DNA from: Acidimicrobiales bacterium | GTDB taxonomy: Bacteria; Actinomycetota; Acidimicrobiia; Acidimicrobiales; JBBSGY01 | Direction: 5' to 3' | Assembly: GCA_044220495.1 (NCBI GenBank) | Contig: JBGAQY010000004.1 | Coordinates: 11,069 to 75,068 of the forward strand | DNA length: 64,000 nt | Part shown: positions 8,488 to 59,854 of the stretch, in pieces | Layout: each line of letters begins with the position of its first letter | How positions within the stretch are numbered: the stretch's first letter is position 1 | Notes under the pieces: generated by a model | The model's database searches: none | What the model saw: the letters and a program-made list of their open reading frames with translations, nothing else | Told to the model about the DNA's origin: nothing | Program-made: the position numbers and the translations under genes

Positions 8488-8561
8488 CCTTTCAACTACG
8501 CGAAAGTGCCAAAAGTGCGCGCTTTCGGAGCCGTTTTTGGGCTTTTCGCGTGGTTGAAATG
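8488..8561. repeat. palindromic intergenic repeat, copy A (74 nt)
   Basis: The left arm is cctttcaactacgcgaaagtgccaaaag. The right arm gtttttgggcttttcgcgtggttgaaatg is its near-perfect reverse complement. It shares termini and length with the copies at 13714 and 33213. Confidence 0.8.
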
Positions 8562-9910: not shown

Positions 9911-10900
9911 CTAGGCGAGACTGAAGCTAGGTGCCTTGCCGGAGTCGACAAAGTCTTTGGGTAGTCGAAGATGTTTCGGCTGGAGCGGCTCGATGTGTAC
10001 GGGAGTGATTTCTGCCCGCTGCATCACCTGGCTTTGGCCGATTGCTAGTAAGGCTTCTTCTTCGGCGACTCGAATTCGGCGCTCCGCCGGCGAAAGCTGA
10101 TTCAGTTCCGCTTTTGGCGTGTGGAGAGGGAACAAGTAACGCACGTTGCCGGGCGACATGTAGGTTCTGACTCCGACGATGAACAGCGCGCGGTGATACC
10201 AGTCGAGTACGGGTTCGTCGGCTTGGCGTTCGGGTGCTCCGAACTCGAGCAGCCGTTCTTCAACTGAGTTGCCGGTGCCGTTTTTCAGCTTGTCGACTGA
10301 GCGCGGGTGAATCAGCGTGCCATCAGGCAACACAAGACAGCGATCTTTGCTCGCACGTCCGGTGCAGATGGCGTTACTGGCTCGATATATCTGGCCCCAA
10401 TGGCCGGGAAAGACAAGCTTTCCCGAGAGTGTTGTGCGCGGGACTGAATCAGACATGGCAACGACGCCGCGCACGCCAGCTTTGCGCGCCAGCTCAAAAC
10501 CGCGATTTAGAAACCACGTCTCTCCGTTGAATCCAACCTCGTCGAGCAGCACGAAACGGCCGAGCTCGAGACTCTGTGTGTACTTGGTGAGTTTGGGGAA
10601 GGCGTTTGTGAGTACAAGCGGTTGCACGGGCGACGACAGCACGGCAACGCCTTGAAGGTCGTCGCCTTTGAAGAGTCCGAAGCGATGCACGTCGGCTACA
10701 AACGATCCTGAGTAGTGGTGCGTGACTACAAAGTCTTTAGCGGTTCGAAAGTCGATAGGAGCAACGTCGTATTGCTTGCTGTCGAAGGGTTGGCGATGAC
10801 ACACCCACTTCGTCTTGCGCTCGCGAGTCCTTTGATCAACTTGGTGCTCGTTAACGCCAATGGGCAACTCGAGCTGTACGGCTCCGTATGAATTCACCAC
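9911..10900 (-). CDS. Mom-like / GNAT-fold acyltransferase-type protein (candidate nucleic-acid modification enzyme)
   Basis: 329 aa. The motif series is AKDFVVTHHYSGS ... FGLFKGDDLQGVAVLSSP ... SLELGRFVLLDEVGFNGETWFL ... VVAMSDS...GHWGQIYRASN ... VRYLFPL. This follows the pattern I recall for Mom-family (phage Mu) adenine-modification homologues. Recognition is by eye only. Confidence 0.5.
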   Translation of the reverse strand: MVNSYGAVQLELPIGVNEHQVDQRTRERKTKWVCHRQPFDSKQYDVAPIDFRTAKDFVVTHHYSGSFVADVHRFGLFKGDDLQGVAVLSSPVQPLVLTNAFPKLTKYTQSLELGRFVLLDEVGFNGETWFLNRGFELARKAGVRGVVAMSDSVPRTTLSGKLVFPGHWGQIYRASNAICTGRASKDRCLVLPDGTLIHPRSVDKLKNGTGNSVEERLLEFGAPERQADEPVLDWYHRALFIVGVRTYMSPGNVRYLFPLHTPKAELNQLSPAERRIRVAEEEALLAIGQSQVMQRAEITPVHIEPLQPKHLRLPKDFVDSGKAPSFSLA

Positions 10901-11193
10901 AACCCCGTCGTGTCTCTTCCTGGTGCATGCGCGGTGAGCACTCCAAAGAACAGATCAGGTTCGTTGTTTGCAACGGCTGTGGTTGGTCGTGCGCCGGTGA
11001 CGACTTCGCCATGATCATTACTAAAACGTGTTGCGACCGCGTGTGCAGTTTGGAGGGTCGCGTCACTAAGGCGGTATGCGCTTTCGGTGATTGGCCGCGA
11101 CCGAGGCACGCCGTTGTCGTCCCAGTGAACAACGAGAACACGCGTTCCGGGTTGCCAAGTGAGGTCGACGATCGAGCCGGCGTTTGTGCGCAT
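10894..11193 (-). CDS. hypothetical protein, translationally coupled to the Mom-like gene
   Basis: The stop overlaps the start of the downstream Mom-like gene by 7 nt. Sampled third-codon positions are mostly G/C (14 of 18). The start is either ATG 11193 (100 aa) or ATG 11310 (138 aa, which would overlap the upstream gene). Confidence 0.45.
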   Translation of the reverse strand: MRTNAGSIVDLTWQPGTRVLVVHWDDNGVPRSRPITESAYRLSDATLQTAHAVATRFSNDHGEVVTGARPTTAVANNEPDLFFGVLTAHAPGRDTTGLW

Positions 11194-11269: not shown

Positions 11270-11887
11270 CTATGTCGTGATGGTTGACGACTCTGTGCTT
11301 TGTGGTGCACGACGCTGGCGCAGTTGTGAGCGCCGAACGATAAGCAGAGTCACGAGCACGACGTTCATAAGGCCGACCGCAGCGGGGTAGACGGCTGTTG
11401 CAAGTGAAAGCTTGGCGAGAGCGATGATCGAGAGAGCGTGCTTGAGCATGCTGAGTTGGTGGGTGATCAGTGTTTCTTCATGGGGCTTGTTCCATGACTT
11501 GCGCAGCGTCGGGCCAAACGCCAAGAGGTCGATCAGTGTGACGAGGATGATCGAGAGCAGCGGACCATCAGTGGCGAGCCAAGCAAGCCCGGCAATTGCG
11601 CAGCCGACGAGACTTAACCAGTCGCTTCGGGTGATCTGCTTCTCACCGTGACTGATGGCTAGCAAAGTGATTACAACGCAGAGGGCCGCTGTTGTTCCGG
11701 TCGCCCATGTTCCGGGGCCTCCGCCGCTGACGACTTGACCGGCGAAGGCAATCGCGGTCATCGCCGTCCAGACGATCCACGTAAAGAGATGCGGTCGAGT
11801 CTTGTCGAGCCACGTGTCGCGAATGTATGGAACAAGGCTGACGATCGAGATGACAGCGGCAAGCGCGCCGAGCAGTTCTTTACTCAC
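11270..11887 (-). CDS. integral membrane protein (about 6 TM), unknown function
   Basis: 205-aa hydrophobic ORF (LGALAAVISIVSLVPYI, FTWIVWTAMTAIAFAG, LSIILVTLIDLLAFG). It lies 36 nt downstream of the RCC1-repeat gene on the same strand. Confidence 0.65.
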   Translation of the reverse strand: MSKELLGALAAVISIVSLVPYIRDTWLDKTRPHLFTWIVWTAMTAIAFAGQVVSGGGPGTWATGTTAALCVVITLLAISHGEKQITRSDWLSLVGCAIAGLAWLATDGPLLSIILVTLIDLLAFGPTLRKSWNKPHEETLITHQLSMLKHALSIIALAKLSLATAVYPAAVGLMNVVLVTLLIVRRSQLRQRRAPQSTESSTITT

Positions 11888-13713: not shown

Positions 13714-13787
13714 CCTTTCAACTACCCCAAAAGCCCAAATTTCCGCCCAGAAAGGCCCACTTTTGGGCTTCTTGGGTACTTGAAAGG
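13714..13787. repeat. palindromic intergenic repeat, copy B (74 nt)
   Basis: The arms are cctttcaactaccccaaaagcccaaat and acttttgggcttcttgggtacttgaaagg, which are reverse complements of each other with a few mismatches. It sits in the divergent intergenic region between 13615 and 13880. Confidence 0.8.
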
Positions 13788-16611: not shown

Positions 16612-19600
16612 TCAAACGGCGAGTGCGCCGTCGACATCTGACGTGACCTTGATCGTCGAACCCTCGGCCCCTTTGACCACCTCGATGCCGACGGGGATGC
16701 GGCTGCGCAGTGCGTCGACGTGACTGATCACACCGACGAGACGACCGCCCTCGCGCAAGCGGTCGAGCTCGGCCATAGCTAGATCAAGCGTGTCGGCGTC
16801 GAGCGAGCCAAACCCTTCGTCGACAAACAGTGCTTCGATGGCAACTCCGCCTGCATGCTGTTGCACGACATCAGCAAGGCCCAGTGCGAGTGACAGTGAT
16901 GCCAAGAACATCTCACCGCCTGACAACGTGGAAACTTCGCGCTCGGTGCCGGTGTACGAGTCACTCACCAAAAGCGATAGGCCTGACGCCGCTTTGCGTT
17001 TCGCCAGCACATCGCTGTGACGCAACCGGTAGCGGCCGGCTGACATGAGCTGCAGGCGGATGCTCGCCGCGTCAGCAACCTCTTCGAGATACGACGCCAG
17101 CACGTAACGCTCAAGCGATATTCGACGAGCGTTTGATTGCTTGCCGTCGCATAACTGCGCCAGCGTGGTTAGACGATCACGCTCTGCCCTCAATGGTGCC
17201 AGCGATTCGTGTGAGTTGGCGAGTCGGTCGACAAGATCTACAAGCTCGTCGACTTGTGTTTCGAGTCGCGAAACAGACGCCACCAACTCTTGTGTTTGAT
17301 TGCGCGCAGTTTGTGCTCGCTGCTGTGTGCCGACAAGGTCGGGCGCCTCGGTGATTGTTTGGTGCGTCGGGTCGTCGAGTATTTGCTGTGCAGCCGATCG
17401 CGCGTGGTTCCAACGGTCGACTTGTTCGCGCATCAACTCGCGCTGATTGTCATCGCGCATTTGCAATGACAATTCGCCAGAGTCGACATCAGACATGCCG
17501 GCCGCATCCATTTCTTGGCGTAGCTGTGCAGCCGACTCAGCGCGTTGTTGCGAGCACATCTGCTCGTTGTGTTGGGCGCGCTCGAAACTGCCAATCAAGC
17601 TTGACAGCTTGGTCAACAATTTCAACCGACCGTCGACGTCGATTGCGGCAAAGTCGACATCAGGATTTTCAGCCTGCACACGCGCGAGCTCATCTCGCGC
17701 AGTCGTCACCTCGGTCTGTGCCTCGATGACAGCGTTGTGTACGGATTGCTGCTTGTCGTTAAGCACCTGAACTTGGGTTGTCAGTGATGCCAGCTGTTTC
17801 TGGAGGTCATTGCAACGTTCGAGATCTTGTGTGGCGTTAGCAAGTTGGGTGCGCATGTCATCGAGCTGCCGCTTGGCCGCACCGAGGTCGTCGACCGCCG
17901 CACCGGCGAGCGCGACTAGGCGATTGCACGCCGCTTGTTGCGCGGCGACGGCGTTAGTAGCGAGCTGTGACTTGCTCTGGGCGTTAGACCACTCGGCCTT
18001 GGCCTGAGCGACAGCTTTCTCATCGACGATGTCGTCAGACGCCGCTGGTTGCGGATGATCCAGTGAACCGCAGACCCGACAGGGGTCGCCGTCTTTTAAC
18101 CCGCGAGCGAGCTCGGAGGCCATCGTTTCGAGACGCCGTTGCAGTAGGTCTAGATATCGCTGCTGGAGATCGAGCGTGCGCTCGCTGGCGGCGCGCAGTT
18201 GAAGTTCTGCTGAGTCGAGCAGGCGGCGCTGTTCGACCAACTTCTGCCCAGCCTCGCACTGATCGGCGAGGCGAGAGACATCGGCCTGCAACCGATCTCG
18301 CAAGTCGGCCGATTGTCTGACTGTGCTGATCTCACGTTCGAGGTCGACTCGTTGATCTGATAGCGCATCGAGTTGCTGGTGACCGAGATCTAATTGCTGC
18401 GAGAGTTGGCTCAGCTTTACCTGTGCGGCGTTGACCAGTGAATGTTGTCGGTTGAATGCCAGCTTTGCGCTACCAAGAGCATGAGTGTCGGTTTCGGCGG
18501 CCCGGAGTTGTGACCACAATTCACCGCAGTCGTCAGACACCTCAGCAACGGCTGATCGAAGCGTGTCATCCCAGTCGAGATCGTTGCCAAGCGCGGCGAC
18601 CGCCGATTGGGCTGCAGCTCGCGCACCAGCAGCCTCGACAGCAGCGCGTTGGTTGGCAAGATGTGCGCGGTAGAGCGGACCCAGTGGAGCAACCCGATCG
18701 GCTCGCTCGAGTTCGATGCCAATGAGCTGCACCTCGTTGGCAGATTCGTCGAGAGCGGCAAGTCTCGTTTGAGCGCCGACCCGGCGTTGCCAGCGCTCGG
18801 TATCGAGTCGAACGGTCTGCAGCTGCTCATCGAGCACGTCGCTTCGTCGTTGGGCCTCGAGTAGTCGAGCGCGCTCACCAGCGAGTAGTGCTCGCGCATC
18901 ATGCGTGGCAGTCGCCATTTGCTGTAGCTCGCCGTCACGTTCACTGTCGGCGTGCGCCAAGGTGATGCCAAGCGCAGAGCAAAGTTCGTAGACGCGGCCC
19001 GCCCAGTGCCCGACGGCTTGCTCTTCGGCTGCGTAGTGATTGGCGGCCAACTCGGCTCGAGCGCGCAAACGTTCGGTGTAGACCTCAAAGCGCTCGGTGT
19101 GAAAGAGCGTGCGCAACAACTTCTCGCGGTCGTCAGCGCGTGCTTGAAGCGCGCGTGCGAATGCTCCTTGAGGGAGGACGACCACTTGCATGAACTGATT
19201 GGCGTCGAGCCCGATAAGTTCTTTGATGGCGGTGTCGACTTCGAGCACGACCGATGACACTGGCTGCCAGTCGTTGCCGACTCGCTTGAGCAGAGTTGCC
19301 TTGGCCCAATCGCGACGGACACCTTCGCCGCGTGACTTCGGACGATCTTGGGCCGGAGTGCGTGTGACTCGATAGTCATTGCCTTGAGCCGAGAACTCGA
19401 GCGTGGCGGTTGCTTGAGTGGCTAACGGTGCGTGATCGCTGCGCAGCTTGTCGGCGCTGCGAGGTGCCGGGATCTCGCCGTAGAGCGCAAAGCAAAGTGC
19501 GTCGAGCAAGGATGATTTGCCGGCGCCCGTCGGGCCGTGAATGTGAAATAGCCCGAACGGCGACAGCGCGTCGAAGTCAACAACGACATCACCCGCGTAT

Positions 19601-19638
19601 GAGCCCATGGCGGTGAATTCGAGTCGGTGTGGTCTCAC
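16612..19638 (-). CDS. sbcC: SbcC/Rad50-family exonuclease ATPase subunit
   Basis: 1008 aa. It has Walker A (GPTGAGKSS), a long coiled coil with a CxxC zinc hook (DPCRVCGS), the ABC signature (LSGGEMF) and Walker B (LFVDEGFGSLD). Confidence 0.9.
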   Translation of the reverse strand: MRPHRLEFTAMGSYAGDVVVDFDALSPFGLFHIHGPTGAGKSSLLDALCFALYGEIPAPRSADKLRSDHAPLATQATATLEFSAQGNDYRVTRTPAQDRPKSRGEGVRRDWAKATLLKRVGNDWQPVSSVVLEVDTAIKELIGLDANQFMQVVVLPQGAFARALQARADDREKLLRTLFHTERFEVYTERLRARAELAANHYAAEEQAVGHWAGRVYELCSALGITLAHADSERDGELQQMATATHDARALLAGERARLLEAQRRSDVLDEQLQTVRLDTERWQRRVGAQTRLAALDESANEVQLIGIELERADRVAPLGPLYRAHLANQRAAVEAAGARAAAQSAVAALGNDLDWDDTLRSAVAEVSDDCGELWSQLRAAETDTHALGSAKLAFNRQHSLVNAAQVKLSQLSQQLDLGHQQLDALSDQRVDLEREISTVRQSADLRDRLQADVSRLADQCEAGQKLVEQRRLLDSAELQLRAASERTLDLQQRYLDLLQRRLETMASELARGLKDGDPCRVCGSLDHPQPAASDDIVDEKAVAQAKAEWSNAQSKSQLATNAVAAQQAACNRLVALAGAAVDDLGAAKRQLDDMRTQLANATQDLERCNDLQKQLASLTTQVQVLNDKQQSVHNAVIEAQTEVTTARDELARVQAENPDVDFAAIDVDGRLKLLTKLSSLIGSFERAQHNEQMCSQQRAESAAQLRQEMDAAGMSDVDSGELSLQMRDDNQRELMREQVDRWNHARSAAQQILDDPTHQTITEAPDLVGTQQRAQTARNQTQELVASVSRLETQVDELVDLVDRLANSHESLAPLRAERDRLTTLAQLCDGKQSNARRISLERYVLASYLEEVADAASIRLQLMSAGRYRLRHSDVLAKRKAASGLSLLVSDSYTGTEREVSTLSGGEMFLASLSLALGLADVVQQHAGGVAIEALFVDEGFGSLDADTLDLAMAELDRLREGGRLVGVISHVDALRSRIPVGIEVVKGAEGSTIKVTSDVDGALAV

Positions 19639-19650
19639 TGCGCGACCGTT

Positions 19651-20844
19651 CTAAGCGGCTTGTTCGCGGCCGGGTACAACGGGCGCCTCGATGGCGTCGG
19701 CAAGATCGCCCATCTCTTCGGGTGACGGCGGGCGGTGTGCCATTTCGGTAAAGAAGTCGACGGTTAGATCGAGATCGTTCTTGCCTCGTACGCGCTCGGT
19801 GTAGGAAAGAGTTGCTCGAGTTTGAGCCGGTGGCTCGTGAACGAGGTGCACGGCGTGGGGAAAGCGACGACGCAATTGCGCCATTGGCTCGGCCGGCAAG
19901 ATTGCATCGGTAAGCACGGCTTGCACGTAACCCGCTTCGGCTTTCGCAAGTGAAGGATCGTGAAGCAACTGTTCGAGGTTGCCTCGAAGCTGGTGAAGCG
20001 AGCGCTGCACCGGATAGTCGATGCCTTCGACGCTCATCTCACCATTTATTGGTAGATCAACTAGCCACGCCCCCTTGGTATGAGCGTGCTCAGAGAATGA
20101 ATAGGCCATCAAAGACCCCGAATAACGCGACTTGCCTTTGCCGAGACTTTGGCGACCGTGCAGATGACCAAGCGCCCCGTAGTCAAAGCCCCGCAAACTA
20201 CCGAGGCCGACCTCGGCTGACCCACCGACAGCCAGCGCCAACTCGCTTTCACACGAAGTTCCGCCGGTGACGAAGGCATGCACGATGGCCACCGAACGCG
20301 TGCCAGGACGATTAGCCAAATCAGCGCGAGCACGGTCGAGAGCGAGACGCAGCAAACGCTCGTGTGAGCGCGCCTCAGGTTCGCCGAGTACATGACGCGC
20401 CGACTCGGGCTCGAGATAGGGAATGGGATAAAACGCAACGCACTCATCACCCGAGCGCTCGGGGATGAGAACCGGTTGACCGGCGAGGGCAATGTCGCCG
20501 CGCAGTGTGACACCACCAGCTGTGAGCATTCGCTCACCGAAACCGATGCGTGCTGCTGAGTCATGGTTGCCAGAAATGCCCACGATTCGGGCGCCGGCAT
20601 TGCGAATCTCACCAAGAGCGTGATCGAGCGCTTTAACTGCTTCGGCAGACGGAACCGCGCGGTCGTAGATATCGCCGGCCACAACGACGACGTCAACGGA
20701 TTCGGACTGCACGACGGCAGCTATGTGATCGAGCACTTGCACTTGGGCGTCGAGAAGTTGAACGCCGTGAAAGCTGCGCCCTAAGTGCCAGTCGGATGTG
20801 TGAAGAATTCGCACGTCATGAACGGTAATTAGGGGGTGTGACAT
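19651..20844 (-). CDS. sbcD: SbcD/Mre11-family nuclease subunit
   Basis: Phosphoesterase motifs ILHTSDWHLG, VVVAGDIYDR and ISGNHDS are present. The start is uncertain (ATG 20844 or ATG 20901). Confidence 0.85.
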   Translation of the reverse strand: MSHPLITVHDVRILHTSDWHLGRSFHGVQLLDAQVQVLDHIAAVVQSESVDVVVVAGDIYDRAVPSAEAVKALDHALGEIRNAGARIVGISGNHDSAARIGFGERMLTAGGVTLRGDIALAGQPVLIPERSGDECVAFYPIPYLEPESARHVLGEPEARSHERLLRLALDRARADLANRPGTRSVAIVHAFVTGGTSCESELALAVGGSAEVGLGSLRGFDYGALGHLHGRQSLGKGKSRYSGSLMAYSFSEHAHTKGAWLVDLPINGEMSVEGIDYPVQRSLHQLRGNLEQLLHDPSLAKAEAGYVQAVLTDAILPAEPMAQLRRRFPHAVHLVHEPPAQTRATLSYTERVRGKNDLDLTVDFFTEMAHRPPSPEEMGDLADAIEAPVVPGREQAA

Positions 20845-20962
20845 TTTGGTGGACGCCCACCGAGATTGGCCACAGAAATTCCGCTCGAAAATGCTGCACA
20901 TGGCTAGCTAACGACGCGCAATGATCCTGTTTTACGAAATTAGATGTGGAGTTGTTTTCAAA

Positions 20963-33177: not shown

Positions 33178-33212
33178 CTCTTGGTTCGCATAGCGCAGGC
33201 CTCACTGGCCAG

Positions 33213-33288
33213 CCTCTTTCAACCACGCGATATAACCAAACACAGGCGTGTCCGTTGCTGTTTTTGGCCTTATCGCGTGGCTGAAAGG
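33213..33288. repeat. palindromic intergenic repeat, copy C (76 nt)
   Basis: The arms are cctctttcaaccacgcgatataaccaaa and tttttggccttatcgcgtggctgaaagg, which are reverse complements of each other. An outer ccagcc/ggctgg pairing extends the stem. The copy lies just downstream of trpD. Confidence 0.8.
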
Positions 33289-33333
33289 TGATGGCTGGTA
33301 TCGCAGTCTGGGGCACTGTCACACCCCCTCGTC

Positions 33334-33558
33334 ATGATGGTCGGTATGGCAGAAATGACGATTAGTTGCACCGACTGTGCGTTGGCTGACGACGAAGCGG
33401 CCAAGGCTGAACATTGCGCAGATTGCATTGTCACGTTTATTAGCGGCCGAGATCCCGACGACGCCCTCGTAATCGACGCCGCCGAGGCGAGGGCCATGCG
33501 GTTGCTGGCAAACGCAGGTTTGATTCCTCGGTTGCGCCACGAGCGACGAGCGGGCTGA
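33334..33558 (+). CDS. small Cys-containing protein (CxxC...CxxC)
   Basis: 74 aa, containing ISCTDCALADDEAAKAEHCADCIV. It ends 13 nt before the GT4 gene. The start is uncertain because there are several Met codons in the first 8 residues. Confidence 0.45.
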   Translation: MMVGMAEMTISCTDCALADDEAAKAEHCADCIVTFISGRDPDDALVIDAAEARAMRLLANAGLIPRLRHERRAG

Positions 33559-51882: not shown

Positions 51883-52155
51883 TTAGAGGCCGAGAAATGG
51901 TTCTCGCGGACGCCGCCGAGCGTTGCGAGCTCTCGTTTCTTCAATCATGTCGATCATCTCGGCCGCCAAATCGATCGGGCCCTCCGTGGCTACTTCGAGG
52001 CTGGCGTCTGAGGAGCGGTGCTCGTCGGATCCGGTCGCCGCAATTTCGGGTTGTTCACTCAAGGGAGTCTCCACGGTCGTGTAGTCGAGGTGATGGCCAA
52101 AGGCCGGCTGGAACAACGGTATCGGCCGACCTGGCCCACGGCAACGGTTGCTCAA
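51883..52155 (-). CDS. hypothetical acidic small protein (weak call)
   Basis: 90-aa ORF whose ATG overlaps the ArdC-like stop by 4 nt. Third-position GC is not clearly better than in the other frames (about 68% vs 68% and 54% over 50 codons). Confidence 0.25.
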   Translation of the reverse strand: MSNRCRGPGRPIPLFQPAFGHHLDYTTVETPLSEQPEIAATGSDEHRSSDASLEVATEGPIDLAAEMIDMIEETRARNARRRPREPFLGL

Positions 52156-53189
52156 AGGCTCATTGCTGCCTCGTTGTGAGTGGATTCCGCGAGAGCGGCC
52201 ATTTCGGCGTCGAGATCGTCGGTTGATTCGTGTGTTTGTTCAACGCCGCGACCGAGTCCGAGGATGTAGTTAGCTGCTTTTTGCCCAGCGGTTGCGGCGA
52301 GGGCAATTGCCTTGGGGTCGTTGCGCAACACCTGTAGCCAGTTCGCCAAATAGTCCGCATGATGCAGTGTTGGTTGATCTTCGATTCCCGTAGTCGCGCA
52401 CAAGAATGCCGAACTGAGTTCAGCGATCAGTTCTTCTTCGGCGTAACTCGTGCTGCCAAAGCGTCCTCCTGTTGCACGACCCACGCGACGATCGTTCGAC
52501 GTCGAATGCGAAAGTTCGTGAAACATTGTGCTGTAGAAGCGGTCAGCTGACGGGAACGCGTTCATTGGTGGCGTCACGATCATGTCGTCAGACGGCGAGT
52601 AAAACGCCCTGTCGATTTCTTGATGACGAATAGTCAGCCCGTCGTTACGCATGGCGGCGATGAGCCGCTCGGCGATGTCAAGTCGTTCGTGTTCGGGTCG
52701 GTTCGGCGGCGCCCACTTGTAACCATCGACGACGGCTGCATTGAAAACACAGAAGCCGGTGGGTACACGTTTGGTTCTCGGGGTGCTGTCGTCGCTCAGT
52801 GACGGCAACCTGCGTTCGCGTGATGGCGTCGAAGTTGTGCGACTGCGACGCGATGTCGAGCCTGTCGCTCCATCGCGAGGCTTGACATCAACCCACCGGA
52901 TCAAATGGACCCCTGCACCTTTTGCTTCACCGTTGCTTTTGAGCTTGTAGCCAGCATCGTGCCACTGCTTGAACGTTGCCCAGACGGGAGCCTCATAGCC
53001 ACGAGACCCAGCAACGAGTGACAGCAGCAGCTGGTTGAGCCCGTGGTACGGATTATCGGTTGTTGCGTTGAAATGTCCTTTGGTCATTACTGACCACGGC
53101 TTTCGCCAGCCGTCGGGATCGGCAATTCCTTGTTCGATCAGTTGCACTAGCTGACCAGTAACTGATGTGTAAATGTCGTCGGCTTTCAT
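52152..53189 (-). CDS. ArdC-like antirestriction protein (ssDNA-binding N-domain + zincin metallopeptidase)
   Basis: 345 aa. The N-terminal region is PWSVMTKGHFNATTDNPYHGLNQLLL...WATFKQW and the C-terminal HExxH motif is MFHELSHST. A Ser/Thr/Arg-rich linker (GATGSTSRRSRTTSTPSRERR) separates them. Confidence 0.7.
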   Translation of the reverse strand: MKADDIYTSVTGQLVQLIEQGIADPDGWRKPWSVMTKGHFNATTDNPYHGLNQLLLSLVAGSRGYEAPVWATFKQWHDAGYKLKSNGEAKGAGVHLIRWVDVKPRDGATGSTSRRSRTTSTPSRERRLPSLSDDSTPRTKRVPTGFCVFNAAVVDGYKWAPPNRPEHERLDIAERLIAAMRNDGLTIRHQEIDRAFYSPSDDMIVTPPMNAFPSADRFYSTMFHELSHSTSNDRRVGRATGGRFGSTSYAEEELIAELSSAFLCATTGIEDQPTLHHADYLANWLQVLRNDPKAIALAATAGQKAANYILGLGRGVEQTHESTDDLDAEMAALAESTHNEAAMSL

Positions 53190-53445
53190 GGCGGGTCCTA
53201 TCGAGTTGTCGCTTCGAGGCGGAACGTATGCCCGTCGTGTTTTCGGAAAAAAATTTCATGTTTACCGAGGTTCCACAGTGCGTCTCGACACGAGTGAGAT
53301 GACACGTAAGACAATCCGTGTTCCGCAACGCGGTTGACGAATCGACATCCGCTAACAGGTTGCAATCAGCGCATATGTCATTTTCGGGCGTCACGCTGAG
53401 TCAGGTTTTCTCATACGTAACCGCTGCGGGTCGATAGAACTTGCG

Positions 53446-55077
53446 ATGTTTTTGGCGCAAGGTTTTTCGACGTTCAAGCGAATCGCAGTCGTTGCGGTGG
53501 TCGCCGCGATCGTGAGTGTGATGTTGCCGTCGAGCATCGTGCGTGCGGCTGACAACTACGTCGGTTCGGCGATGCGCCCAAATGGTGATGGTTACTGGCT
53601 TACAACGGCTACTGGGTTTGTCACGGCGTCGCCCGGCGCGCCGTTCCATGGCGACCTGCGTCGAGCGTCTCTCAACCGTCCCGTAGTCGCGATGGCGGCG
53701 ACAAAGACGGGCAACGGTTACTGGTTGGTCGCCAGTGATGGAGGAATCTTCAGTTTCGGGGATGCCGCTTTCTACGGATCTACTGGTGCAATTCAGCTGA
53801 ACAAGCCAATAGTTGGGATGACGGCGACACCTTCGGGTCGCGGTTATTGGATGGTTGCTAGCGACGGAGGAATCTTCAGCTTCGGCGATGCCGCTTTCTA
53901 CGGATCAACCGGTGCTATCCGTCTCAACAAACCCGTCGTTGGCATGTCGGCTGCGGCGGATGGCCTTGGCTATTGGCTCGTGGCCACTGATGGCGGAATT
54001 TTTAGTTTTGGATCATCGCGATTCTTCGGATCAACCGGTGCGCTCGACTTGAATCAACCAATTGTTGGCATGACGACTACAGCCAACGGTTCTGGCTACT
54101 GGTTGGCTGGCGCCGACGGAGGCGTGTTCAGTTTTGGCGACGCGCAGTTCCGCGGAGCGACGGCCGATGGTGATGCTGCACGCGCAATCGCAATCTTGCG
54201 CGACAGCAACGGCGGTTACTCGTTGATACGCGCCGATGGTTCGGTTGATCAACGCGCCGTTGGCGTGGCTGTTGGCACACCTGCTGTAACACCCGGCGCC
54301 GAGGCTGCCGCGCCGACAACAAGTGTGCCGCCCGTGATCGGCTCGCCAACGACGACCTCGCCTGTTGTCAGTTCTCCGCCAACCACAGTCCCATCGCCGA
54401 TCTCGACAGCTCCGACCACCACTGCGCCGACGGGTCATCCGCTCGGTTGGGTGCTCAAAGCACAAGACGATTTCTACGGAACCGCTCTTGCCTCGCGCTG
54501 GGCTGTGTACGACGGGGCGGGAACTGCAGGCATTGGCATTCGTCGTCCCTATGTCGTGTCAGTGAGCGACGGTGCAATGCACATCAACGCGCGTGACTTG
54601 GTGACGGGCGGAATCTGCTGGTGTCTCGGAGGCGAAGGCAGTCAGACGTACGGCAAGTGGGAGATTCGAGCTCGCATGGATAACGGCAAGGGTTACGGTC
54701 CTGCGATCTTGCTGTGGCCCGACTCAGAACGCTGGCCCATTGATGGCGAGATCGACATTGCTGAAATGTCGGAGCCCTATCGCAATCAAACGCATTTCAC
54801 ATTGCACTGGGGCGCCAACAATTCGCAGATCCAACACACTGAGGTTGGTGACTTCACGCAGTGGCACACCTACGGCGTCGACTGGCAGCCGGGCTACATC
54901 AAGTACTACCTAGACGGCGTGTTGAAGTACACCAACGTCATGCCTGCAGCGATCCCCACAAACCCGATGCATCTTGCGCTACAAGTCGACGCCGGTGACG
55001 GTCGCTGGATGAACGCCCCCGACCCGGGTGTGACGTCGGGACTTCATGTCGACTGGGTGAAGATGTACCTGCCGTAA
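53446..55077 (+). CDS. secreted protein: ~6x 42-aa GYW...DGGIFSFGDA repeats + Pro/Thr linker + GH16 glycoside hydrolase domain
   Basis: It has a signal peptide (...SSIVRA/ADN). Repeats with period 42 aa span aa 47-267. The linker is PVIGSPTTTSPVVSSPPTTVPSPISTAPTTTAP. The GH16 catalytic motif is GEIDIAE (ExDxxE). Confidence 0.8.
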   Translation: MFLAQGFSTFKRIAVVAVVAAIVSVMLPSSIVRAADNYVGSAMRPNGDGYWLTTATGFVTASPGAPFHGDLRRASLNRPVVAMAATKTGNGYWLVASDGGIFSFGDAAFYGSTGAIQLNKPIVGMTATPSGRGYWMVASDGGIFSFGDAAFYGSTGAIRLNKPVVGMSAAADGLGYWLVATDGGIFSFGSSRFFGSTGALDLNQPIVGMTTTANGSGYWLAGADGGVFSFGDAQFRGATADGDAARAIAILRDSNGGYSLIRADGSVDQRAVGVAVGTPAVTPGAEAAAPTTSVPPVIGSPTTTSPVVSSPPTTVPSPISTAPTTTAPTGHPLGWVLKAQDDFYGTALASRWAVYDGAGTAGIGIRRPYVVSVSDGAMHINARDLVTGGICWCLGGEGSQTYGKWEIRARMDNGKGYGPAILLWPDSERWPIDGEIDIAEMSEPYRNQTHFTLHWGANNSQIQHTEVGDFTQWHTYGVDWQPGYIKYYLDGVLKYTNVMPAAIPTNPMHLALQVDAGDGRWMNAPDPGVTSGLHVDWVKMYLP

Positions 55078-55181
55078 TAGGGAATGTGCGCCGCAATGAC
55101 GGCGTACGGCCCGAATGACGACCGATTTCTGGTTACACTCGCCGAGTCAGGGATTTCGCTGCGTGCGTCTTCCATTTATTT

Positions 55182-55256
55182 GGCGGCGTAGCCGAGTGGT
55201 TCAGGCAGGGGCCTGCAAAGCCTTGTACACGGGTTCGAATCCCGTCGCCGCCTCCA
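55182..55256 (+). tRNA. tRNA-Cys (GCA)
   Basis: Acceptor ggcggcg/cgccgcc, anticodon stem ggggc/gccuu with loop cuGCAaa, T-arm acggg-uucgaau-cccgu, discriminator U and an encoded CCA. Confidence 0.95.
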
Positions 55257-55314
55257 TATTGTTTGGCTTGTACACGGGTTCCCGAGTTCCATGGCCGCCT
55301 CCATATTGTTTGGC
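55223..55314 (+). repeat. tandem duplication of the tRNA-Cys 3' half (att-like scar)
   Basis: R1 (55223-55267) is ttgtacacgggttcgaatcccgtcgccgcctccatattgtttggc. R2 (55268-55314) is ttgtacacgggttcccgagttccatggccgcctccatattgtttggc. The flanks are identical and the T-arm is diverged in R2. Confidence 0.85.
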
Positions 55315-55454
55315 CTTTACGTACTTCTCAGCGTTTGTCGCGAAAGGGACGTTAGGCCGGGGTGGCTTCGCCGCCCAACGGCTATTACGTTCCATTCGCA
55401 GTGAAGCCGTCACTGCTGAATTGTCCGTTGGTCTGATCCGAAGTCGCGTGGGTT

Positions 55455-57917
55455 TTGGTCGGGTTTGTGCCCTGGTCGTACCGTGCTTCGGTGCCTTCTC
55501 AAAACCCGGAACTCGATGCAATTCTGAACGGCGAATGCAGCGCTCGCGAAGGGGTCGCCGCTCTATTTGGCAGCGGATCAGTAAACCTCGTGTCTGCTGT
55601 CGACCAATTCTTGAGTTCGTCGCCGAGCGACCTCGACCACGCAACGTTGCGTGTTGTGGCTGCAGCAGCGCCGTACTTCCACCCAAATCAAGTTGCAGAG
55701 TTGATCAGGCGAATGCCGGTCACCGGCGTGCAAATGAAAGTGGCGCCAGTTCATATACCGGAGCTCTCGGCCGCCTTTGGTGAAATCATTGGGCGCTACA
55801 AACCTGACACTCGCTTCTCGCTTGTCAGTGATCTCATCCACACCCAAGTGGCCGAGACGATCGACTTGGTGCCAAGTGCCAGCATGACCGAACGAGGTCG
55901 CCTCGTGCTTGCTGAACTTCTTGCGTCTCGAGCAAAGCAGGGTGGCTGGACCGCCAAGCGCGACGTCGTGCGACACAAGTTTTCGACCCCGGCGATTTAT
56001 GCAGACGTTGTGGGGGAGTTTTGTCGCCGAGGCCCACGGATCGATGCCGATACTTACGCGCGGACCTTCAAAGACCTTGCCAGCAGTCGCCATGCTGACG
56101 ATCACGCGCGTACGCGATTGTTCGCGAGCGCACTAAAGGTCGCTAACACGCCGGAGCTGTTCTCCTTGCTCAACTCGATCACTCGTGGCGTGCCGACCGA
56201 GTTGCTCACCAAGGCCGTGCTGACAGCGCGCGCAAAAGGTTTCAAGTGTGACGGCGTGAACGACGAGCTTGCCTCCCGCGTCGACGCGCCATCACATGTT
56301 GTTCGCTACATAGCCACGGTTGGTCGCGTACCTGCGCTCATGAACATCTTGCGGCGCAACGACGTTTCGCAAGCAACAGTTCGCATTTCCTCCGAGCGCC
56401 TCGCCAACAAGGTTGGACTGACCGAGACCATGCGCAGGGCCTTGGTGCGCGAACGTCTTACGGCGATCGTGGAACCCGATGACAGTCGAATGCCCGAGTC
56501 GACAGCAGTGGCTCACATACCGCTGGCTTGGCGAGACTTTCTGATCAGAATTTCGAGCCCAACATTGCTCGCACAGTTTGCAACCCAGGAATCGTTGGGA
56601 CGCCCGTACGCGCTGACGCACATCAACACGCCTCAAGCCGTACAAGTAGAAGCAATTTCCCAGGGTGGGGAGAAGCTAGCCAACTGGGTGTGTTCTGCTA
56701 TCGACATAGACGCGACCCTGCTCGATAAGGCGATCGCAGCGGCGAGTCGCGAGGGTCTGGAGCGCGTGGCGAACCGAGTTGATGTAACCGATGCACAACT
56801 AAGTGTGGTGGCTAAAGCGTTGAGCCGCCGCAAAGAGCTCAACACTGAACGCAAGCGAGCCATTCTGTCGAACGCAAACGTGGGCCGCGATCTTGTTATG
56901 TCGCTCATCACGCCAGCGTTTGTGGCCCAAGCAGCTCGGCCTTCGAGTGTGTTGGCAGCTGAGTATTTTGAGCAGGTCCAAGCTGAGATGGCTGTGTCTC
57001 GCAACCGTGCTCACTATGCAGAAGAAGCGACACGACTGGTCGAAAACCTAAGTCTGAAATCGTACGGTGGTGCCTACGCAGTCACCGACGCTCAACGACT
57101 CTTTCGGTACTTCGACGAGGGCGATCGCGAGAGAGTTGGCGCTGCACTTCGTGGCAACCCTCGAGCTGTCGCCGAAGCGTTGGCGGCGGGAGATCACGAG
57201 GCAGCGTTGCGTAGTGCGCCTGAACGTTATGCATTTATTGCGGGCCTAGGTCTACTCGATAAGCGCGTTTGGCGCTTTGCCACGGCATCGCCTTTCCGTC
57301 GCTCGGCTGCCTGGCTTGCTTGTCAGCCAGATGCGCCTGCGAGCGAGTTTCAGCATCTTGCTGCTGAAGCAGTTGACACCACAATAGAGATGGGTCGCAA
57401 GTTAGCTGCGACCGTTCAGTACCCCAACGATGAAAGCAACATGCGATGGCAGCAATTGCCCAACAAGAGTGACCTTCCGTTCAAAGACACCGACGCGCGA
57501 CGCTTGACTCGCTCGATGACCGCTGGTGGGTTGACAGGGACGTTGATCAGCTCGCCGCGGCAACTAAGGGCACTTGCCTTGCGCATGGGCAACTGCCTTG
57601 CTGTCTACGAGAGTTCGCTCAGTTACGGACATTCAATTGCTGTCGCGTTTGAAGACCCGACCCAAAGCGACGTGCACGTTGCCATGTGGGATACGCGGCA
57701 TGTCCATGAGACTCAGCAACTCACACTCCGCCATCTTGAGTCGAAGTATGAGCAGCACACCTATCCACCTGAACTGAAGCGAGAATTGCGCAGATTGGTC
57801 ACAGAGATCAATCGCAACCTTCGCGACGGAGTTGTTGAGCCAGTCGTGACTGCTGACAAGATTTCGCTGCCCACCAGTGCGCGCAGCGGTCAAGTCAACT
57901 TGAGCCTTGGCGCATGA
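55455..57917 (+). CDS. large helical-repeat protein with PcfJ-like C-terminal region
   Basis: 820 aa and predominantly alpha-helical, rich in Ala/Leu/Arg. The C-terminal LISSPRQLRALALRMGNCLAVYESSLSYGHSIAVAF resembles the PcfJ motif (L..EG..M.HCV..Y), with Asn replacing His. Recognition is by eye only. Confidence 0.45.
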   Translation: MVGFVPWSYRASVPSQNPELDAILNGECSAREGVAALFGSGSVNLVSAVDQFLSSSPSDLDHATLRVVAAAAPYFHPNQVAELIRRMPVTGVQMKVAPVHIPELSAAFGEIIGRYKPDTRFSLVSDLIHTQVAETIDLVPSASMTERGRLVLAELLASRAKQGGWTAKRDVVRHKFSTPAIYADVVGEFCRRGPRIDADTYARTFKDLASSRHADDHARTRLFASALKVANTPELFSLLNSITRGVPTELLTKAVLTARAKGFKCDGVNDELASRVDAPSHVVRYIATVGRVPALMNILRRNDVSQATVRISSERLANKVGLTETMRRALVRERLTAIVEPDDSRMPESTAVAHIPLAWRDFLIRISSPTLLAQFATQESLGRPYALTHINTPQAVQVEAISQGGEKLANWVCSAIDIDATLLDKAIAAASREGLERVANRVDVTDAQLSVVAKALSRRKELNTERKRAILSNANVGRDLVMSLITPAFVAQAARPSSVLAAEYFEQVQAEMAVSRNRAHYAEEATRLVENLSLKSYGGAYAVTDAQRLFRYFDEGDRERVGAALRGNPRAVAEALAAGDHEAALRSAPERYAFIAGLGLLDKRVWRFATASPFRRSAAWLACQPDAPASEFQHLAAEAVDTTIEMGRKLAATVQYPNDESNMRWQQLPNKSDLPFKDTDARRLTRSMTAGGLTGTLISSPRQLRALALRMGNCLAVYESSLSYGHSIAVAFEDPTQSDVHVAMWDTRHVHETQQLTLRHLESKYEQHTYPPELKRELRRLVTEINRNLRDGVVEPVVTADKISLPTSARSGQVNLSLGA

Positions 57918-58918
57918 CACCAAAATCTGCGACCTCACGCTTTCGAGACACCGAGGCACTGCGTTCGTATTACCGCGATGGCGGCGACGAGTCGCTTCCC
58001 GAACGCCAGCGTTCGTACCTGCGCAAGCTCGCCGAAATGGACGTGACCTTGTCGGCTAATGGCGATTGGACACTTATCCAACATGGTCGCGGTAACTGGC
58101 AGGTCGTGCCCGCCGGCACCGCACTGATGCTACGGGCCGACCAGGTCGACGTTGGTTCAGTGGGTTCTAAGACTGCTGCTGTCAAGTTGGCAGCCTGGCT
58201 TAGCGACAACGTGCGGGTGGTCGATGGCACTGCTGTCGATTGGTCGAGTCCCTCGGTGTATCACGTCGTTGAGTCGCTGAGGGCGTTTGGCAATGAGCAA
58301 GAACTGGCGCTCATTGCTGCGCGCGCGAGATTTGACGAGCTCACGAACGAGAAGTTCAGTCACGCCGGTGATGTGTTCAAGCGCATCGGCAGACTGTCGT
58401 CACGCGAAGACCTTCCTGAAGGACAGAAGTATGCCGACGAACTGCGATCGGGCGACGCTTTGGTCACTCGTGGCAACAAGCTTGTACGCATTGCGCAAGT
58501 CGAAGAGCGCGCGGGGTATTACTTCGTGACAACGGGCGCTGGCGAGCGAACTCAGTTCAGTCGCAATGCGCCAGTTCCTGCAGTGAACGCCGCTGACTTA
58601 GTCGTTTGCGATAACGACGGGCAACGTATTGGCGAATGGGTGTCTGATAACGAACTCAAAGCAGGCGACGAGATCACGTTTGTGATTAGCGGAGAGCGTA
58701 TTGATCCGATGAATCGCTATGGCTGGCGCAAGTATGCGCGTATCGATGTGCTCGATGTGTGGTTGCCAGAACGTGTCGTCAGGCTCGACTCTCTTGAACG
58801 ACCAACAGCGAAACTCAAAGTAACGACAGAACGAGAAGTTCAGTCTGCGGTAACACCTGCGCAACGGCCTTCAGCGGCTCGAGAATCAGTTGGCGAGATT
58901 CAGCGCACGCTGTTCTAA
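57914..58918 (+). CDS. hypothetical protein, translationally coupled to the 820-aa gene
   Basis: 334-aa ORF whose ATG overlaps the upstream stop (ATGA). No motif recognised. Confidence 0.55.
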   Translation: MTPKSATSRFRDTEALRSYYRDGGDESLPERQRSYLRKLAEMDVTLSANGDWTLIQHGRGNWQVVPAGTALMLRADQVDVGSVGSKTAAVKLAAWLSDNVRVVDGTAVDWSSPSVYHVVESLRAFGNEQELALIAARARFDELTNEKFSHAGDVFKRIGRLSSREDLPEGQKYADELRSGDALVTRGNKLVRIAQVEERAGYYFVTTGAGERTQFSRNAPVPAVNAADLVVCDNDGQRIGEWVSDNELKAGDEITFVISGERIDPMNRYGWRKYARIDVLDVWLPERVVRLDSLERPTAKLKVTTEREVQSAVTPAQRPSAARESVGEIQRTLF

Positions 58919-58924
58919 CAAGAG

Positions 58925-59854
58925 CTAAGCGACGTCGGCGTCGGGCTTGGGATTGTCGGCGGGCACCCGCGGTGACGACAGTCCGGCCTTCAATCCTGAC
59001 GCAACGGTGGTGCGCGTTTCGCGGTCGTTGAGGCCAATGGCGATGCCGGTATCGATAAGTGCCATCTCGACTGCGTCGTAGTCAAGTGACCCGCCGCCGA
59101 CAATTTGCCCAAGTTTGAATGCGCAACGGTTGAGCGTGAAGTTGCGGGCACCGACAGGCGCTCGATGCAACTCGTCGAGTTCGTCTTCGAGAGCACTCAA
59201 CGCCCAGCGATTGCTCGCACGCACCGGACGACGAGGAACGATTGACGGGCGCGGCTGCTCTTGTTCTTTGAGCAGTTCGAGTAACCAACTGGGCAAGTCA
59301 GCAAGTGGCTCATCTGAAGTGATGTGGTAGCGGCGTCCGCTGGCATGCAGGCTTGGGGGCGCAATTACGTAACCACCGTCGCCGCGAATGTCGAGCCCGG
59401 GGCCAAGTCGACGTCCGGCGTCGTTGGGAATGCGCACGTTTGGGTGCGCGAAATAGAAGTGCAGTCCGTCTGAGCCCGTTGCAACCGTAAACGTATGAGG
59501 CAGCGCACCGTATTGCTCACGCAACTTCTGCAAAGAGTCGAGTCCACCGTGTGCCGGATCGACATCAACGACAACGAACCCACTCTCGGCTCCGCTTCTA
59601 ATACCGACATTCGCGTGCGGCCAACGCTTCCACCATCGTTTGATCTGCTCGCGATCGGTAACCGCTGACTTGAGACCATGTGCGACGATCGGGTGCTTCG
59701 ATGGCGAGGCGCAATCCGAAAATCCGCACGAACAATTGCTGGCGCCCTCTTTCACGACGTGACACGGAAAGACAGCCCAGCCGCGTGCGCCATAAGTAAG
59801 TGCTGCCTGCAGGGGGGTTTTAAAGTGCGGGGCCCTGGTTTGGCGGTCAGACAT
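58925..59854 (-). CDS. bifunctional DNA primase/polymerase (Prim-Pol, AEP superfamily)
   Basis: 309 aa, with GWAVFPC, KHPIVAHGLKSAT-like, the catalytic VVVDVDPAHGG motif and GLHFYFAHP. The C-terminal helical region is typical of plasmid/ICE Prim-Pol proteins. Confidence 0.8.
   Translation of the reverse strand: MSDRQTRAPHFKTPLQAALTYGARGWAVFPCHVVKEGASNCSCGFSDCASPSKHPIVAHGLKSAVTDREQIKRWWKRWPHANVGIRSGAESGFVVVDVDPAHGGLDSLQKLREQYGALPHTFTVATGSDGLHFYFAHPNVRIPNDAGRRLGPGLDIRGDGGYVIAPPSLHASGRRYHITSDEPLADLPSWLLELLKEQEQPRPSIVPRRPVRASNRWALSALEDELDELHRAPVGARNFTLNRCAFKLGQIVGGGSLDYDAVEMALIDTGIAIGLNDRETRTTVASGLKAGLSSPRVPADNPKPDADVA

Follow-up and report, generated by a model that had tools for sequence, protein, structure and literature searches.

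Bacterial MITEs and palindromic repeats such as the Correia elements, ERIC/IRU, RUP, and Nezha are short, non-coding, intergenic sequences with terminal inverted repeats, whose transcripts can form hairpins. The attC sites of integrons have RYYYAAC and GTTRRRY ends with an invariant GTT, carry extrahelical bases or an unpaired spacer, and are found in cassette arrays next to intI. REPs are short imperfect palindromes present in tens to hundreds of copies per genome, together with a gene for a cognate Y1/HUH transposase (RAYT) that usually has REPs on its flanks. In REPINs, the inverted ends are conserved; the interior is less so, but its length and its capacity to form a hairpin are maintained (Bertels and Rainey, PMC3116915). 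A defining trait of a REP is a GT[AG]G tetranucleotide placed 5' of the hairpin foot, at a distance of 0-2 nt (PMC6006769). REP families are mostly found in Proteobacteria, and subclasses of RAYT are also abundant in Cyanobacteria and Bacteroidetes (PMC6006769).

We analyzed three dispersed palindromes present in a stretch of 64 kb of actinobacterial DNA, hereafter called the window. They form a genuine and previously undescribed family of an ordinary kind, i.e., a small dispersed palindromic repeat.

Three copies of a palindromic unit

The initial annotation reported three loci with a common architecture. Reading the sequences bears this out, except that the start assigned to copy C (33213) was 2 nt too early, the in-register start being 33215. 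The copies and the two boxes that characterize their arms are as follows.

Copy A: 8488-8561, with arms at 8488-8515 and 8534-8561 and a centre at 8516-8533
Copy B: 13714-13787, with arms at 13714-13741 and 13760-13787 and a centre at 13742-13759 (the copy singled out by the initial annotation)
Copy C: 33215-33288, with arms at 33215-33242 and 33261-33288 and a centre at 33243-33260
Box 1 (terminal): CTTTCAACYAC, for example at 8489-8499 in the left arm of copy A
Box 2 (subterminal): CCAAA[A], with the partner TTTTGG on the opposite arm, for example at 8509-8513 in the left arm of copy A

Each copy has 74 nt and the three align without gaps (MAFFT), the unit being made of two inverted arms of 28 nt around a centre of 18 nt. 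When the six arms are pooled, the consensus of the half-site is CCTTTCAACYAC-gCgAnAagn-CCAAAa. Box 1 is found on all six arms with zero or one mismatch, and box 2, located 9 nt inward of box 1, is invariant in all of them. The inner CCAAA/TTTTGG pair and the variable centre described earlier are thus recovered: of the 56 columns of the arms, 37 do not vary among the three copies, compared with 3 of the 18 columns of the centre. The termini had also been described as conserved. This stands in the sense that the terminal 12-mer is present at the six ends with at most one mismatch, and not in the sense of strict identity, since copy A ends in GAAATG, copy B has GTAC in place of GTRG, and copy C starts with TCTTTC. 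The copies are 55-72% identical to each other over their full length, and their 30-nt flanks are 20-43% identical, which is the level of random sequences. In copy C, complementarity that is specific to this copy lengthens the palindrome to around 33208-33295. The sequence of copy B is identical in Logan contig L001 (SRR28480386). Spurious ORFs run across all three copies; the family can be mis-called as coding sequence.

The terminal 12-mer CCTTTCAACYAC has 7 matches with at most one mismatch in the 64-kb window, against 0.40 expected, and none of 100 shuffles reached this number. Six of the seven matches are the six termini of the element. The arm pattern CTTTCAACYAC-N9-CCAAA, allowing up to three mismatches, matched exactly the six arms (0.58 matches expected), and this two-box search revealed no solo arm in the 64-kb window. 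The observation is real and well beyond chance. As had been proposed, we used the three copies to build a covariance model; run with filters off, it found no fourth copy in the 64-kb window and none in the relatives described below. At 2150-2164, a lone intergenic sequence, CGAGTGGTTGAAAGT, is close to the right terminus of the element, from which it differs at 2 of 15 positions. We did not count it as a solo terminus: the chance probability of such a match is around 0.2, and the model does not recognise the site.

Gene neighbourhood

Pfam scans show that all three copies are intergenic and lie in a region of the core chromosome. Their spacers, and the small gene next to copy C, are the following.

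Spacer of copy A: between maf (- strand, start 8345) and pirin (+ strand, ORF start 8792, likely true start around 8957)
Spacer of copy B: between an RCC1-repeat gene (- strand, start 13615) and an AAA_18 kinase gene (+ strand, start 13880)
Spacer of copy C: between the stop of trpD (33177, 38 nt before the copy) and a small CxxC gene (46 nt after the copy)
Small CxxC...CxxC protein gene: 33334-33558, + strand, 74 aa, no Pfam match

Copies A and B are placed between divergent gene starts, as had been stated for copy B, and only copy C follows a stop codon. Since the small CxxC gene is also kept after trpD in a relative (L153), copy C is in a co-directional intergenic spacer. A motif of around 20 nt upstream of the small CxxC gene, ACTGTCACACCCYCTCGTCA, is also conserved between the two (window 33316-33558; L153 3281-3509).

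The genes identified in the window with Pfam include argS, trkAH, maf, pirin, a Mom-family gene, the RCC1-repeat gene, sbcCD, argCJBDF, ku, a GGDEF gene, trpD, a GT4 glycosyltransferase, a phosphoketolase, and ackA, and an Rfam search identified the RNase P RNA. A Logan contig (SRR28480386) shows whiB and also argR. Several of these loci deserve a mention in their own right. The Mom-family protein (329 aa, 9911-10900, - strand; PF25680, E 1.7e-20) is encoded amid housekeeping genes. The genes sbcC and sbcD (16612-20901), encoding a nuclease of hairpins and palindromes, are in the same window as the palindromes, and the imperfect arms and the 18-nt centre may let the repeats evade cleavage by SbcCD. 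Three tandem repeats of 126 nt (100/76/63% identity) are found at 53671-54048, in the ORF (53446-55077) that encodes a GH16-domain protein. After a tRNA-Cys (55182-55256), its 3' end recurs as a degenerate direct duplicate of 47 nt (55236-55273 vs 55283-55320, 84% identical). Around this tRNA there are an ArdC-N/zincin gene (52152-53189, - strand), a Prim-Pol gene (58925-59854, - strand), and two large ORFs lacking Pfam matches (55455-58918). The region 52152-59854, with the duplicate of the tRNA-Cys, may be an integrated element or the remnant of an att site.

Hairpin folding and covariation

The initial annotation described one imperfect hairpin of around 27 bp per copy. Our results agree with it: the arms pair in register as an ungapped helix of 28 pairs. 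Of its 84 cells, 84.5% hold standard pairs, a share that falls to 35-51% once the partners are slid. The RNA folds of the copies range from -36 to -47 kcal/mol, with z-scores of -3.4 to -7.9 on either strand relative to shuffled sequence, and the z-scores of the ssDNA folds are between -4.5 and -6.7. Judging from these folds, the unit can adopt a stable 28-bp hairpin in either form, RNA or ssDNA. Self-pairing within single arms was found only in the left arm of copy A (5 bp, CTTTC/GAAAG); the other arms have none.

The same annotation argued that the changes between arms preserve pairing and that this reflects selection on structure. This was not supported. Only 3 pairs have changed on both sides among the three copies, and 154 of 500 column shuffles equal that number. 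The identity between arms within a copy (22.3 of 28) is near that between arms of different copies (20.6 of 28), and the true pairing of the arms merely ties for the best among the 15 possible pairings. Hence, the derivation of both arms from a single palindromic consensus, from which they have since diverged, explains the pairing, and with three copies the statistics do not support compensatory evolution. The covariation seen in the sequence of copy B (CCCC/GGG vs GCG/CGC) is suggestive, not demonstrated. Asymmetry in G-U pairs favours the + strand in copy A and the - strand in copies B and C, and does not point to one transcribed strand.

Signals of mobility and transcription

We searched for target-site duplications at the ends of the three copies, a check that had been proposed, and found neither a conserved target nor, at boundaries consistent across copies, any direct repeat of 3 nt or more. 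Pfam scans of the ORFs of the window (every non-overlapping ORF of 120 aa or more, with one exception) revealed no transposase, integrase, Y1/HUH protein, or tyrosine recombinase. There are no further pairs of the terminal motif in the window and no IS with matching ends. The remark that the palindromes are not classical terminators was confirmed, in that the search for U-tract terminators scored none in the three spacers; the same applies to promoters of the sigma-70 type. A reading of the termini as small ORFs or as SD/anti-SD sequences was rejected, because the start codons after GAAAGG are 2 nt off or absent and are inconsistent among copies. The Logan contig carrying trpD (L141, SRR28480386) ends at position 33182 of the window, 33 nt short of copy C, which could be due to a drop of coverage at the hairpin or to heterogeneity in the population.

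Occurrence in collections and relatives

The collections were scanned with an exact pattern common to all three copies. It had 64 matches in 185,579 species-representative GTDB genomes and 75 in the JGI metagenomes, none of which is a member of the family according to the model. They are isolated chance matches in unrelated organisms. The source genome itself is absent from the scanned genome and metagenome collections. The pattern revealed nothing relevant in the viral contigs of IMG/VR, and BLAST searches of plasmids and phages with the copies as queries were negative. The initial annotation was aware of no named family with these termini, and this is consistent with the covariance models of Rfam 15, none of which matches the copies, either at the gathering threshold or with E<=10. 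A search of the literature for the strings of the termini returned only primers and shRNAs, and we found no paper on palindromic repeats in Acidimicrobiia.

The source falls in Actinomycetota, judging from its WhiB and Ku neighbours and from the named TrpD homologues (Actinomycetota, Acidimicrobiales); it is the MAG of an uncultured, Acidimicrobiia-like bacterium. The nearest homologue of TrpD is 68% identical, which indicates that the collections contain no close relative. Around 70 kb of sequence from the relatives L142, L143, L144, L153, and L154 (56-68% protein identity) contained no copy when searched by the model with filters off. The region 29-44 kb of the window is syntenic with L144 (60% TrpD identity), where a 4-nt overlap of trpD with the GT4 gene leaves no spacer. 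In L153 (68% TrpD identity), the homologous small CxxC gene comes after trpD, and the 300-nt spacer between them has neither the element nor a significant hairpin. As the element is missing downstream of trpD in both relatives, copy C represents a gain specific to this lineage. At the depth of these relatives, the family does not constitute a conserved cis-element. At the loci of copies A and B, the relatives are not syntenic (kinase 45-51% identity; Maf 56%, on two contigs).

The relatives have other hairpins. L142 has a long intergenic palindrome at 11366-11438, with 27-nt arms and a 19-nt centre, and L143 has a 19-bp hairpin, 95% complementary, directly after the stop of trpD (11102-11141). 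Both are unrelated to our element. The palindrome of L142 and a hairpin at 16142-16202 in L144 were considered as members of the family and rejected, since they are not homologous to it.

Origin and possible functions

Three options had been put forward for these palindromes: a REP/MITE-like element, a small RNA, and a protein-binding palindrome. As an origin, the evidence favours the first, given the constant length, the lack of homology in the flanks, the unrelated loci, the absence at the orthologous trpD site, and the REPIN layout, although the unit departs from the canonical definition of REPs. The alignments show that the copies share one ancestral sequence and came to lie at intergenic sites unrelated to each other. 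Their identical length, complex consensus of 2x28 nt, non-homologous flanks, and unrelated neighbours require that they arose from one another by copying, and the independent origin of a 2x28-nt motif with such a fixed geometry is implausible. Hence, the explanation we favour, to which we give about an even chance of being correct, is a lineage-specific, non-autonomous, REPIN/MITE-like palindromic repeat that has spread by copying and whose boxes are recognised by a trans-acting protein. The repeat would have been dispersed by transposition-like copying, with a protein acting in trans as the catalyst; this protein would recognise both boxes and probably also the foot of the hairpin. Since there is no target-site duplication, a single-strand mechanism of the HUH/Y1 type, RAYT-like, or another non-duplicating mechanism would fit better than a DDE cut-and-paste transposase. 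Any effects on neighbouring genes, by an RNA hairpin or by protein binding, would be secondary. The copies are only 55-72% identical, which suggests that the family is old or inactive, or else that the boxes are under selection at the level of the host. The latter would favour a role in protein binding. More generally, high divergence together with strict conservation of the boxes leaves real room for a host-level function, either in protein binding or as an RNA hairpin.

In the case of protein binding, the unit would be a cis-acting palindrome of the host, whose two boxes are bound by a lineage-specific regulator or a nucleoid-associated protein, as a dimer or a tetramer, and the copies would be operators or insulators within spacers that contain promoters. 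The conservation of the sequence does outweigh covariation, with two boxes near-invariant in the six arms, a fixed spacing of 9 nt, and a free centre, and the boxes persist even if the copies are old. Besides, the three copies are 46-231 nt or more upstream of the start of a gene on the + strand, two of them between divergent starts. We nevertheless regard this explanation as unlikely. A site of 2x28 nt, where the half-sites of box 1 are around 52 nt apart, is far above the size of known operators, the neighbours of the copies share no theme (maf/pirin, RCC1/kinase, small CxxC protein/GT4), the orthologous trpD spacer lacks the site in relatives, and no sigma-70-like promoter overlaps the copies. 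Furthermore, the origin of three units of equal length would still require a mechanism of copying.

A function at the RNA level, where the hairpin would be a U-less terminator, a stabiliser of 3' ends, a site of RNase processing, or a small RNA, seems to us similarly improbable. It would account for the very stable RNA folds (z down to -7.9) and for the position of copy C just downstream of trpD, and the unrelated 19-bp hairpin of L143 at the same position suggests that a hairpin may be functionally wanted there. There are also U-rich runs after the inner CCAAA/TTTGG stem, on both strands. However, copies A and B have no upstream gene to terminate, the spacers have no scored U-tract terminator, the preferred strand of the G-U pairs is inconsistent, covariation is not significant, Rfam gives no match, and the element is not conserved in relatives. 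The mycobacterial RNA polymerase needs a U-tract according to one report (PMC3993855). This statement, together with the position of two copies between divergent starts, weakens the version of this explanation that involves termination.

One could go further than a generic mobile repeat and suppose a REPIN/RAYT-like system native to a deep-branching, Acidimicrobiia-like lineage, which would have persisted vertically or been domesticated, in which a dedicated protein recognises the two-box hairpin and the repeat has been co-opted at divergent promoters. We see this as a rather doubtful scenario. If true, it would reveal a partnership between a hairpin repeat and a transposase outside the phyla with described systems, with a geometry of recognition unlike that of the GT[AG]G foot.

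Finally, the copies might be taken for solitary attC-like recombination sites of integrons, because they are imperfect palindromes of 74 nt, inside the attC length range, with conserved end boxes, a variable middle, and AAC...GTT-like termini (TTTCAAC at the left end of all copies matches RYYYAAC at 6 of 7 positions and GTTGAAA of copy A matches GTTRRRY equally well), but this is very improbable and effectively refuted by a GTT triplet present only in copy A (the right ends being GTTGAAA in A, CTTGAAA in B, and GCTGAAA in C), by arms whose in-register pairing leaves neither extrahelical bases nor an unpaired spacer, and by copies lying 5 and 20 kb apart among housekeeping genes with no cassette array, in addition to a first base of TTTCAAC that is not R and to the lack of an integrase or another tyrosine recombinase among the scanned ORFs of the window.

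On present evidence, the family is a routine feature of genomes, with no bearing on open questions. If confirmed genome-wide, it would add an undescribed family of palindromic repeats from a poorly sampled actinobacterial lineage, and it could point to the enzyme that mobilises it.

Comparison with known systems

The geometry of the element is not fitted by the CRISPR-repeat-like, parS-like, and operator motifs known to us. It also differs from a canonical intrinsic terminator, where a GC-rich hairpin is followed by a U-tract of 7-9 nt at the 3' end of a gene.

The element also resembles MITEs. It is a short non-coding intergenic unit that can sit upstream of genes, and it has terminal inverted repeats, in the form of 28-nt arms ending in the terminal 12-mer, found at the six ends with zero or one mismatch. 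Unlike MITEs that depend on DDE transposases, it has no target-site duplication, and the window has no parent IS with matching ends. With 74 nt, it is smaller than most MITEs, and its copies are strongly diverged outside the two boxes.

There is a further likeness with REPINs, hairpin-forming doublets of REPs mobilised by RAYT/TnpA-REP (e.g., GI-GIII of Pseudomonas fluorescens SBW25; PMC3116915; PMC6006769). Like them, the element is a symmetric unit in the range of around 70-110 nt, whose two inverted end regions are conserved and whose interior is less so, the whole folding into one long hairpin. It is also extragenic, specific to its species in sequence, and devoid of target duplications. 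The differences concern the foot and the arms. The 4 nt located 5' of the foot are GCGC, GCCG, and AGCC, instead of GT[AG]G, and the CYAC/GTRG pair of the element is 8 nt inside the stem, paired to itself. The single arms, unlike REPs, are not themselves palindromic. The scanned ORFs of the window do not include a RAYT, the known copies are three, all within 64 kb, and the host is an actinobacterium. Classical REPs are uncommon between divergent gene starts, where two of the three copies are found, a difference that is not significant at n=3. To judge from its sequence, the element would thus work like a REPIN or a MITE, and we file it next to the REP family but outside of it, since its foot and arms depart from those of canonical REPs.
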